A stretch of 64,000 bases of DNA from Promethearchaeota archaeon (GTDB lineage Archaea; Asgardarchaeota; Lokiarchaeia; Sigyniarchaeales; SOKP01), in contig JBHLOI010000008.1 of NCBI GenBank assembly GCA_048940645.1, positions 28,926 through 92,925 of the forward strand, in the 5' to 3' direction. Below the pieces are notes generated by a model. It saw only the letters and a program-made list of their open reading frames with translations, ran no database searches and was not told where the DNA came from. Each line of letters starts with the position of its first letter. Within the stretch, counting starts at the first letter, position 1. Made by a program: the position numbers and the translations under genes. Positions 5,643 through 21,486 of the stretch are shown piece by piece.

Positions 5643-6890
5643 TTAGACTTTATTAAAGTATTCCGAATCGAGGTTTGGATATATTTTCTTCTTTCTTCCA
5701 TCCTTTTTAAAATTGATTAACTCGAGTTCTTTTAATTTATTAACATGATATTGAATAGTTTTATGATCTACCTTAAATCGTTTAGTAATCAGATTACTCC
5801 AGAGACCAGGTTCATTTTCTATCATTTCCAAGATTTTTAAAGTTAATTTACTCTTGCTTAATTCAATATCTAAATTTGAAATAGGATTTTTTTGATAATA
5901 TGGGAAGTAAGCTATAAATTTACTAATTCTTTTTTTACCTATTATTTTATATGTTTCTAAGATGTCTAGATGCCATACTAAATTTCCAGCAGCAAGTCCT
6001 GTTTGCCTTAAAAGCTCATTAAAGTGTATTCCTGGCTGTTCAAGTATTAAATCTATAATTTTATTTCTATTCTCATTTTCTAATACTTCTTCTAAAGTTA
6101 ATCGGTGTGCTCCTTTTTCTATTGGAGTTTGTCTTGTTCTTAGATAATGGAAATAATCTTTTTTTGAAATTAGAATTATGATTGATCCAAATGCCACAGC
6201 AAAAATAATTATCAAAATTACCCAAAACCAACTATCAAAAACTTCGCTTAGCTCAAAAAATGTAATATAATAATCAGTCCCAGCTTCAAGATTTGAGAGA
6301 GAACTTTCTAAATAATATTCAGAGCTAGACTCATTAAATTTATCAAATGTTTCTACAAATTGCCAAGAATCTTGGGATGGTTCAAATATAACCATGGAAT
6401 ATTGACTATTTGGACTGAAACCATAAAAAGTGTTTTTTTTGCTATGGAATGTGACATTTTCGATGGTCACATTAGATTTCACTTGGTAAATACAGTTATA
6501 TCTGTATTGAAATTGAAAACCTCCTCTTCCAGGAGTTTCAGGTTGTTTTGATAAGTTAAATCCTCCCATATTAATTTTACTGGTGATATTTAATGAAATT
6601 GGGAAACTATTATTAACTATTAAAAAAATCTCGCGATTTGCTATTCTATTCTCATAATTGATCCTAATATGTATAAAAGTGTCAGTAGAAACTCCTAAAA
6701 CAATATTATTAGGGAATTTATAAATAACTGTTTCATTTGGATAGATTTGATCTTCTGTAGAAAAACCAGGAATAATTTCCGTTCTTGCGGAAACTTGATA
6801 TATGAAGAATGTGAATTGCAGTATGATAACTGATAAGATTAAAATACTAAAGATGCGAGTCTTCCTCTTTTTAATATTCCAAAAAAACAA
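5643..6890 (-). CDS. membrane-tethered transcription regulator: signal peptide, ectodomain, TM helix, tandem winged-helix domains
   Basis: N-terminal hydrophobic signal; TM WFWVILIIIFAVAFGSIIILI; LENENRNKIIDLILEQPGIHFNEL..L.WHL wHTH plus a second wHTH. Confidence 0.8.
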   Translation of the reverse strand: MFFWNIKKRKTRIFSILILSVIILQFTFFIYQVSARTEIIPGFSTEDQIYPNETVIYKFPNNIVLGVSTDTFIHIRINYENRIANREIFLIVNNSFPISLNITSKINMGGFNLSKQPETPGRGGFQFQYRYNCIYQVKSNVTIENVTFHSKKNTFYGFSPNSQYSMVIFEPSQDSWQFVETFDKFNESSSEYYLESSLSNLEAGTDYYITFFELSEVFDSWFWVILIIIFAVAFGSIIILISKKDYFHYLRTRQTPIEKGAHRLTLEEVLENENRNKIIDLILEQPGIHFNELLRQTGLAAGNLVWHLDILETYKIIGKKRISKFIAYFPYYQKNPISNLDIELSKSKLTLKILEMIENEPGLWSNLITKRFKVDHKTIQYHVNKLKELELINFKKDGRKKKIYPNLDSEYFNKV

Positions 6891-19777: not shown

Positions 19778-20800
19778 CTAGCTTCTCCAAGGAATGGTAA
19801 TATTATCCATTCTTTCTTTTGGATTTATAAGTGTTTCTGCGAGGCAAAATTCTCCTTTACTCTTATACCTTAATATCCCTGTCCATGCAATCATTGCACC
19901 ATTATCCCCTGCGTATTTTAGGGGTACAACTTCGAACTTTGCATTGTGTTCATCGCTAATAGAATTAATCATTTCTTGTAATCTTTTATTTGCTGCAACC
20001 CCTCCAGTTAATAAAACTTCTGTCTTTTCTGTATGGGCAAGGGCTCTTTCTGTAACTTCAGTAAGCATTGCAAATGCAGTCTCTTGAAGAGAATAAGCAA
20101 TATCACATAAATTATATTCTTTTTCATATTTTTCAGATTCTAATAATTTTTTAGCTGACGTAAAAAGTCCTGAAAATGATAGATCCATTCCTTTAACTAT
20201 ATAAGGTAAAGGAAGATATTTATTTGATTTTTTAGCCAACTTTTCTATTTTGGGACCACCGGGATGAGAGATTTCTGCTTCTCTGGCAAATGAATCCAGT
20301 AAATTACCTATAGGAATATCTAATGTCTCTCCAAATATTTGATATCTTCCAGATTCATAGGCACTTACAATGGTATTTCCACCAGACACATAAAGAGAGA
20401 GAGGATCATCAATATTACACACTAATCTTCCTATTTCTATATGGGCAATACAATGGTTTACTCCAATTATAGGGATTTTTAAAAGTTGACCCAGCATACG
20501 TGCTACAAGTGCTCCTATTTTTAAGACAGGTCCTAAACCAGGACTTTGACTAAAAGCTAATAAATTAATATCTTTAATTGAACATTTAGCTTGAGTAAGA
20601 GCTTTATTAATAACTTCCATGAAATTATTCAAATGCTGCTCCCTAACCAAAGCAGGATGAAGCCCTCCTTTTTTAGGTATAAATACATCATTTACTAGAC
20701 TTAGGACCTTTCCTGTAAAATCAACGAGTCCAACACCCCATGTATGCGCAGTTGATTCTATACCAAGGGCTATTTTATTAGATTTCATTATATTCGCCAA
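19778..20800 (-). CDS. kae1: KEOPS tRNA t6A threonylcarbamoyltransferase Kae1
   Basis: GIESTAHT, VNHCIAHIE, LYVSGGNT, GETLD, DNGAMIA. Confidence 0.97.
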   Translation of the reverse strand: MANIMKSNKIALGIESTAHTWGVGLVDFTGKVLSLVNDVFIPKKGGLHPALVREQHLNNFMEVINKALTQAKCSIKDINLLAFSQSPGLGPVLKIGALVARMLGQLLKIPIIGVNHCIAHIEIGRLVCNIDDPLSLYVSGGNTIVSAYESGRYQIFGETLDIPIGNLLDSFAREAEISHPGGPKIEKLAKKSNKYLPLPYIVKGMDLSFSGLFTSAKKLLESEKYEKEYNLCDIAYSLQETAFAMLTEVTERALAHTEKTEVLLTGGVAANKRLQEMINSISDEHNAKFEVVPLKYAGDNGAMIAWTGILRYKSKGEFCLAETLINPKERMDNITIPWRS

Positions 20801-20852: not shown

Positions 20853-21102
20853 TTACTTTGATTTCATCCGTCTTCTTGGAGTTCTTTTTGTGGCTACTCT
20901 TTTTGCTCCTTTAGTTCCCTTTCTTTTAAATATTGTATAGCCACATTTCCCACAAGATGATCTTTTATGGATAATGAGTTTAATCTCATCATCTATCATA
21001 GTGGTCCGCGAGAAAATAGGCAGGTCCACACTTTGGACATGTGCGATGGGTTCTAACTAATTTATCTCCTTCAATTTTATATAAATTTGATATATTCGTC
21101 AT
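20853..21102 (-). CDS. rps27ae: 30S ribosomal protein S27ae, split: join(21102..20995, 20963..20853), 72 aa after removal of a 31-nt insert
   Basis: exon 1 [36 protein letters not shown]; exon 2 [36 protein letters not shown]; canonical position between rps24e and kae1. Confidence 0.93.
20964..20994 (-). other. putative bulge-helix-bulge (BHB) intron in rps27ae mRNA, 31 nt
   Basis: UAUG/CAUA 4-bp helix, AUA and AAA 3-nt bulges, 9-bp intron stem GAUGAUGAG/CUCAUUAUC; cutting after the second nt of each bulge restores the frame. Confidence 0.82.
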
Positions 21103-21129: not shown

Positions 21130-21486
21130 TTATTTATAATCAAAAAGATGTTTATAAGGTTCTTTCCTCTTTTTCAATTTATAGATTTCTGTTCTTTTTT
21201 CTTTTTCTAGATTCCTTGCTTGGATATGAAAGGGTTCAAAATATTGTAATTCATCTGCGTTTTCATATATATGAGCAGTACCTATATCGTGAGCGGAACC
21301 AAATTGTGTCTTAATATCACTGATTATAGTTAATTTTTCATTTACTTTGCTCATTTTAGCAATTTTCTTTTTTATTTCTAACCTATTCGGAGTTCCTTCA
21401 GCAAAATGATCGATTTTAAATCTTAATTCAATCCTCTTTATCAACGGATTTTTCTTCTCTTCTAAAATTTCAATATTTAGCGGCAT
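21130..21486 (-). CDS. rps24e: 30S ribosomal protein S24e
   Basis: KKNPLIKRIE..GTPNR.EI..KTQFG..G.AHIY. Confidence 0.95.
   Translation of the reverse strand: MPLNIEILEEKKNPLIKRIELRFKIDHFAEGTPNRLEIKKKIAKMSKVNEKLTIISDIKTQFGSAHDIGTAHIYENADELQYFEPFHIQARNLEKEKRTEIYKLKKRKEPYKHLFDYK

Follow-up and report, generated by a model that had tools for sequence, protein, structure and literature searches.

The minus strand of the DNA analysed here (a stretch of 64,000 nt, the window) carries rps27ae, the gene of ribosomal protein S27ae (eS31), between positions 21102 and 20853, in two exons with a 31-nt insert between them. With high probability, this insert (20994–20964) is an archaeal bulge-helix-bulge (BHB) intron that sits inside the coding sequence of the sole rps27ae found in the host genome (G000), and the rps27ae mRNA very probably has to be spliced. 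An essential and universal ribosomal protein gene would then depend on non-spliceosomal mRNA splicing, in the phylum nearest to eukaryotes.

The minus strand reads ...GAC CAC TAT GAT^A GATGATGAG ATTAAA CTCATTATC CATA AA^AGA TCA TCT TGT GGG, where the carets mark the two ends of the insert. Exon 1 starts with the ATG at 21102 and exon 2 ends with the TAA at 20853. The insert carries three stops in the frame of exon 1 (TGA, TGA and TAA) and also shifts the frame, and the sequence AGA TCA TCT TGT GGG AAA TGT past the insert is one base out of the exon-1 frame. In the ORF listing the gene appears as two separate ORFs, a 37-aa ORF that ends with ..FLADHYDR and a stop, and the exon-2 part in a second frame. 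The unspliced mRNA encodes only the 37-aa fragment, which is without the second Cys pair of the C4 zinc ribbon; CPKC comes from exon 1 and CGKC from exon 2. Exon 1 alone scores 45 bits against the Ribosomal_S27 profile (PF01599), for which the cut-off is 22.3. The gene lies after rps24e, which is the conserved position of S27ae, and the two genes are presumably in one operon. Downstream of rps27ae, the Pfam profile search finds a RIO-type kinase gene (bud32) in addition to kae1. The initial annotation of this DNA had given the same sequence, coordinates, stops, frame shift and S27ae halves, and all of them are as described in the minus-strand reading, the ORF listing and the Pfam search (Table 1).

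The two halves could also be separate translation products that come together on the ribosome, making S27ae a split protein, and each half does contain one CxxC pair. However, exon 2 is without a nearby in-frame start in any allele, and the sole ORF of the window that covers exon 2 starts in another frame inside exon 1. We regard a split protein as barely credible and turn to the features expected of a BHB intron.

Table 1. Positions of the rps27ae exons, the candidate intron with its predicted structural elements, neighbouring genes, and the second candidate intron of the host genome
Feature	Position	Strand	Basis or remark
rps27ae (eS31) exon 1	20995..21102	-	36 codons; first zinc-ribbon CxxC; Pfam PF01599 E=8.6e-12
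Candidate BHB mini-intron, 31 nt	20964..20994	-	Inserts of 30-31 nt at this site: 13 species, 5 metagenome contigs
rps27ae exon 2, 36 residues and stop	20853..20963	-	Second zinc-ribbon CxxC; intron-less relatives continue ...HYD^RSSCG
rps24e	21130..21486	-	PF01282 E=8.1e-26; 27 nt upstream of rps27ae
kae1 (TsaD family), downstream of rps27ae	19778..20800	-	PF00814 E=3.5e-76
Central helix H, 5' strand UAUG, exon side	20997..21000	-	Pairs with 20969-20966
Central helix H, 3' strand CAUA, intron side	20966..20969	-	Covariation counts, 17 alleles
5' bulge AUA; predicted cut 20995/20994, after second base	20994..20996	-	BHB rule; restores HYD^R in every allele
3' bulge AAA; predicted cut 20964/20963, after second base	20963..20965	-	AAA invariant in 17 alleles
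Inner helix h', 9-bp stem GAUGAUGAG/CUCAUUAUC, loop AUUAAA	20970..20993	-	Folding; 99.3% paired
Distal exon-exon helix, 5' strand UUCUCGCGGAC	21004..21014	-	RNAalifold; 85% of cells paired
Distal exon-exon helix, 3' strand	20947..20958	-	RNAalifold; allele counts
30-nt candidate BHB intron, VWA_CoxE-like gene	G000 C72 plus-strand 6691-6720 (L062:692-721)	- in L062	PF05762 E=1.3e-8
VWA_CoxE-like gene exons	L062:724-1659 and L062:400-690	-	Flank the 30-nt insert

Bulge-helix-bulge structure and cut register

In the pre-mRNA, UAUG of the exon would pair with CAUA of the intron and form a 4-bp central helix, flanked by the bulges AUA and AAA, by the 9-bp intron hairpin, and by a weak proximal and a longer distal exon-exon helix. 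Archaeal EndA cuts a BHB after the second base of each bulge. The predicted (alpha-beta)2 EndA of the host would make these two cuts, cleavage of a relaxed motif being assumed, and RtcB would ligate the exons, ...CACTATGAT to AGATCATCTTGT, and probably circularise the intron. Removal by the BHB rule leaves CAC UAU GAU^AGA UCA UCU and an S27ae of 72 aa, the zinc-ribbon protein into which the ligated mRNA would be translated.

This structure is assessed on 17 distinct aligned alleles, with the BHB model and the distal helix making 25 pairs in all. The central 4-bp helix is paired in 100% of the cells. Its third pair is UA in 12 alleles, UG in 3 and CG in 2, so that where the exon has a synonymous Tyr change from UAU to UAC, the intron has G in place of A; this covariation comes from 5 of the 17 alleles and could in part be explained by an RNAalifold alternative. 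Seven of the nine pairs of the inner stem are changed on both sides, and both bulges are 3 nt in all 17 alleles. The proximal outer pair beside the 3' bulge, made in the window by C 21001 and G 20962, is C-G or U-G and is always paired (100%). Taking all 25 pairs together, 93% of the cells are paired, compared with 41–46% when the partners are slid by 1–3 columns. Both partners have changed in ten of the 25 pairs. The covariation score of 0.366 compares with 0.193 in shuffles, and 0 of 500 shuffles reach 0.366. Many of the pairs are G-U and would be C-A mismatches on the opposite strand, indicating that the structure is kept on the mRNA-sense strand. The fold first proposed, with a G-U pair that works on the mRNA strand only, is thus found again across the 17 alleles with its compensatory changes and frequent G-U pairs, and the inserts of the relatives keep the BHB geometry rather than lose it.

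The outer helix had been described as a single C-G pair. This is correct for the proximal helix, which is one pair, but RNAalifold finds a further 11-bp distal exon-exon helix, separated from the proximal pair by a 2x3 internal loop. The strict hBHBh' form needs h and h' of at least 2 bp. Here h' is 9 bp and proximal h is one pair, which suits the relaxed HBh' class better than the strict form. We do not claim selection on the distal helix, as intron-less relatives are about as complementary: its covarying third-codon positions are complementary in 12/22 and 15/22 intron-less genes vs 13/17 and 15/17 intron-bearing ones.

The exon segments UUCUCGCNGAY and RUCN-UGYGGGAA are complementary even without the intron (window 20947–21014, minus strand; intron-less loci L004–L031), and the site may have been hairpin-prone before the intron arrived.

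All predicted folds share the 9-bp stem as their core. The fold energy is only modestly unusual (z = -2.2), thermodynamic folding favours other pairings around the bulges, and about 4000 compact BHB-like shapes occur in the host genome, which has a GC content of 29.8%. Because such shapes are common and the energy is modest, the case is placed not on shape but on position, empty-site alleles and covariation. One may ask whether the insert is removed from the RNA by some other nuclease and ligase, or whether the BHB has another role, such as cleavage-dependent decay or operon control; the proximal outer helix of just 1 bp would be in favor of removal by other enzymes. Yet the 4-bp helix, the two 3-nt bulges and the cut positions together make the geometry of an EndA substrate and predict the very register that restores the protein, EndA and RtcB are both encoded, and with the BHB in another role the gene would be without an alternative route to a functional product. 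We consider these options quite unlikely compared with splicing by EndA and RtcB.

The product predicted at the outset, HYD^RSSCGKC in a protein of 72 aa, equals the junction of the intron-less relatives, which read CAYTAYGAY^AGR NNN NNN TGY GG at this site. An AGAT repeat at both junctions was initially taken to allow several cut registers with the same product. That is true of the window, where several registers are equivalent, but the g16 alleles are without the repeat and their register is unique: in GAT^TAAC...CATAAA^AGATGG only the cuts of the BHB rule give H-Y-D-R-W, and cuts displaced by a single base, in either direction, lead to HYE or a stop. The 30-nt inserts are in frame yet contain stops (TAG and TAA, or TAA alone), so the insert cannot simply be translated, which argues for removal and not for read-through.

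A ribosome might still pass the insert by translational bypassing, as in phage T4 gene 60. It would leave at AGA before UGA, skip the hairpin and land on the AGA 31 nt further on, giving the same protein from an unspliced mRNA. The window has elements suited to this: AGA and a stop open the insert, a second AGA matches the first at the far end, and a stable hairpin separates the two. In G004 the insert starts with AGG TAG and ends with AGA. The g16 inserts, in contrast, start with UAA right after GAU, their sole matching GAU is out of frame with RWACG, and no pair of take-off and landing sites restores the protein; in G097 there is an AGA without a stop after it. Bypassing, which also leaves the covarying 4-bp exon-intron helix and the invariant 3-nt bulges unexplained, seems to us very unlikely, and excision of a BHB intron stays the preferred reading of the locus.

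Distribution among relatives and state of the gene

Of 147 species of the order, 13 have an insert of 30–31 nt at this site. All 13 belong to one family and are spread over three genera (5 in g1, 2 in g16 and 6 in g22), and no carrier is found in the other three families of the order that were searched. The survey covers this order only, with 154 genomes of which 147 have a PF01599 match. In the genus of the host (42 genomes) there are 5 carriers, G000, G019, G045, G004 and G056, all with the insert at the exact codon boundary, and the other matched rps27ae loci read in this genus are uninterrupted. A pattern scan of metagenomes, in which the exon bases were fixed and any insert of 20–50 nt was allowed, gives 5 further contigs with the insert, and four of these are new variants. 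Same-position inserts with covarying BHB pairs, which the initial annotation had suggested looking for in other Asgard genomes, are therefore at hand in 13 species and 5 metagenome contigs, with compensatory changes.

The tree of Kae1, the product of the neighbouring gene, serves as a stand-in for the species tree. In this tree three carriers of a 31-nt intron and two intron-less species make a well-supported clade of five members. G004, with its 30-nt intron, is sister to the intron-less G008, and one metagenome carrier is sister to the intron-less G011. As carriers are sister to intron-less species, the presence of the intron changes on very short branches. On the sequences compared, the candidate S27ae intron is passed on within a single family of Promethearchaeia, with repeated gain or loss among close relatives. 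The coupling of ribosome synthesis to splicing capacity that was initially proposed finds no support here; a neutral or selfish element would better account for the patchy occurrence among sister species, and it is likelier that the S27ae intron is tolerated than that it regulates.

In the g22 species G134 (L057:315-393, minus strand) the 31-nt intron is closer to the 31-nt form of g1 (G019, L033:453-531, plus strand) than to the other g22 introns. It shares the stem GAUGGUGAG/CUCAUUAUC with the g1 form, while the other g22 S27ae introns have a different stem, GAUUUUAAG. The flanking exons are not especially similar. This likeness hints at lateral movement of the intron or at an ancient polymorphism.

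The profile search finds one PF01599 locus in the whole assembly of the host genome (3.83 Mb, 89.6% complete) and one locus each in G019, G045, G004 and G056, which have a listed completeness of 83–100%. An intact paralog of rps27ae, the presence of which would change the picture, was thus looked for in all five of these genomes, and no second copy was found. The predicted splice gives a full-length S27ae with both CxxC pairs in 18 of the 18 intron-bearing alleles. The exons are intact in all 18, in agreement with the early view that both S27ae halves are undecayed, and the ratios of synonymous to non-synonymous differences among intron-bearing exons are 10:3, 9:2, 5:1 and 18:11. The insert itself is single-copy, with no further copies in the 64-kb window or in the genome at up to 6 substitutions, and an origin from a repeat or MITE is rejected on this ground. 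No Rfam match for the insert region is found at E≤1. When the 58-aa ORF of exon 2 is used in a protein-database search, the matches are the exon-2 ORF of G019 and one 71-aa Logan protein, 79% identical, which is probably the product of an intron-less relative.

These data bear directly on a different reading, in which the locus is a decaying pseudogene, an assembly error or the target of a small DNA insertion element and eS31 comes from elsewhere. A second copy could sit in a gap of the incomplete host assembly, and degenerate S27ae-like second copies do exist in G098 and G142. However, 13 species and 5 metagenome contigs, assembled independently, have the insert at the same site, the exons are intact and differ mostly at synonymous positions, and G019 and G056, both listed as 100% complete, have a single rps27ae locus each. 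An insertion element is further disfavored by the single-copy state of the insert. We judge this reading extremely unlikely, and a functional gene with a BHB intron is preferred.

The second copies of G098 and G142, two g22 species, are at L060 (G098:C82) and L061 (G142:C4). They contain CPKCG...ANNYYRWTCVKCG, with upstream stops and one internal TAA, and look like decaying paralogs that are unrelated to the intron.

Splicing enzymes and a second candidate intron

The host genome encodes two EndA-family paralogs of 201 aa and 205 aa, on separate contigs. Their genes are in the regions 15412–15636 of contig C2 and 9420–9668 of contig C25. The catalytic residues Tyr/His/Lys are present in the 201-aa protein, for which the best match among PDB structures is the splicing endonuclease of Aeropyrum pernix, chain B (3p1z_B, E=5e-34). 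The 205-aa paralog is without the His. RtcB is also encoded, on contig C7 (E=8e-171). Asgard archaea have an (alpha-beta)2 EndA with an L1 loop, and inserts of this kind in the enzyme are tied to cleavage of relaxed BHB motifs (PMC5829648). Judged by eye and with the help of that work, the host EndA appears to be of the two-subunit alpha-beta type with the L1 loop. ARAGORN reports 29 tRNA genes in the 3.8-Mb genome, 13 of them with introns, several of these calls being dubious. This low count fits an earlier statement on Asgard tRNA sets, whose prediction is difficult because genes are disrupted (PMC5829648); non-canonical introns probably conceal the tRNA set.

A scan of the host genome for strict BHB shapes whose removal fuses ORFs gives 2399 hits, vs 2293–2410 in frame-shifted controls, and 160 compact hairpins vs 162–183. 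With no enrichment over the controls, shape and ORF fusion are not discriminating alone. Addition of an outer-helix filter leaves one convincing extra case, on contig C72, where a 30-nt insert with TAA and TGA stops interrupts a VWA_CoxE-like gene (Table 1). The motif is a canonical hBHBh', with outer helix GAGACGC/GCGUCUU, central helix AGCA/UGCU, bulges AUA and AAG, and an inner stem of 10 bp. About 19 relatives have an empty site, GCN GCN ATG^GCN TCN TGG GA (...GDAAM^ASWE...), and variant introns with compensatory changes are found in G019, G016, G057, G004, G056 and G051. In G045 the S27ae intron is present and the VWA_CoxE intron is absent.

This second candidate suggests that the S27ae intron is likely one of a population. 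We lean, if only slightly, towards the view that Loki-type Asgard archaea contain a population of uniform 30–31-nt BHB mini-introns in unrelated protein genes, with fast turnover between sister species. If true, mRNA splicing by tRNA-splicing enzymes would be routine in the closest archaeal relatives of eukaryotes.

Relation to known splicing systems

The mechanism is of a known kind, and the gene and the phylum are new within the searchable literature. Its precedent is the BHB intron in the cbf5 pre-mRNA of Crenarchaeota (Watanabe 2002; Yoshinari 2006; Yokobori 2009, PMC2738675; summarised in PMC10485636 and PMC7714728). The reviews consulted know of just two archaeal mRNAs that EndA splices, cbf5 of Crenarchaeota, in its coding sequence, and HVO_1309 of Haloferax, in its 5' UTR (PMC10485636, PMC7714728). 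Our full-text literature search found no report of Asgard or of rps27ae as an mRNA substrate of the archaeal splicing endonuclease, which agrees with the initial belief that cbf5 is the coding precedent and that the Asgard rps27ae case is unreported. Like the cbf5 intron, the rps27ae insert is short, is located in an archaeal coding sequence and has exon-intron junctions that form a relaxed BHB. Hosts of the cbf5 intron have an (alpha-beta)2 EndA, and the host here appears to have one too; the genes belong to the ribosome and translation apparatus, and the patchy occurrence among relatives points to gain and loss. Unlike the cbf5 intron, it is in rps27ae/eS31, in the phylum Promethearchaeota (Asgard), it has a uniform length of 30–31 nt, and the host genome contains more than one such candidate intron, in unrelated protein genes (rps27ae and VWA_CoxE). 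For the rps27ae insert, splicing is predicted from sequence comparison.

In Haloferax volcanii, HVO_1309 has a BHB intron of 46 nt in the 5' UTR, which is cut by the splicing endonuclease and recovered as circular RNA (PMC7714728). It shares with our case a BHB located in an mRNA. The differences are its place in the 5' UTR, its length of 46 nt and the alpha2-type enzyme of the host, whereas the rps27ae insert is in the reading frame.

Non-canonical archaeal tRNA introns with hBHBh' and HBh' motifs were reportedly described by Marck and Grosjean in 2003. The rps27ae insert resembles the non-canonical tRNA introns of Thermoproteales and other archaea (PMC5829648) in its motif, cut rule, enzymes and small size. 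It differs from them in that the substrate is an mRNA and that the exon side of the central helix is bound to codons (His-Tyr-Asp).

In eukaryotes, the HAC1/XBP1 mRNA is cleaved by Ire1 on stem-loops and ligated by tRNA ligase or RtcB, and this splicing is stress-regulated. The likeness to rps27ae lies in the splicing of a coding mRNA without a spliceosome, in the change of frame or the removal of a translation block, and in the use of tRNA-splicing ligases. Unlike that system, in which Ire1 cleaves at stem-loops, rps27ae would have EndA as its nuclease and a BHB as the cut site, and it shows no sign of regulation.

The 17 natural structure variants, the empty sites of sister species and the second candidate intron in the same genome form a comparative series. 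This series could address how a broad-specificity EndA recognizes an mRNA, and how introns are gained and precisely lost. It could also address whether gene callers make a systematic error with Asgard genes, recording them as frameshifted or split.

In the sister family f2 (G032, L002:1207-1659, plus strand; also G025 and G028) the S27ae ORF is about 150 aa long. Its N-terminal part of about 75 aa ends with ...KIAGGG and in Pfam matches SAMP2 and ThiS weakly, below the cut-off (E about 0.002). This part resembles a beta-grasp domain of the ubiquitin-like kind, and its apparent fusion to S27ae recalls the ubiquitin-eS31 fusion of eukaryotes.
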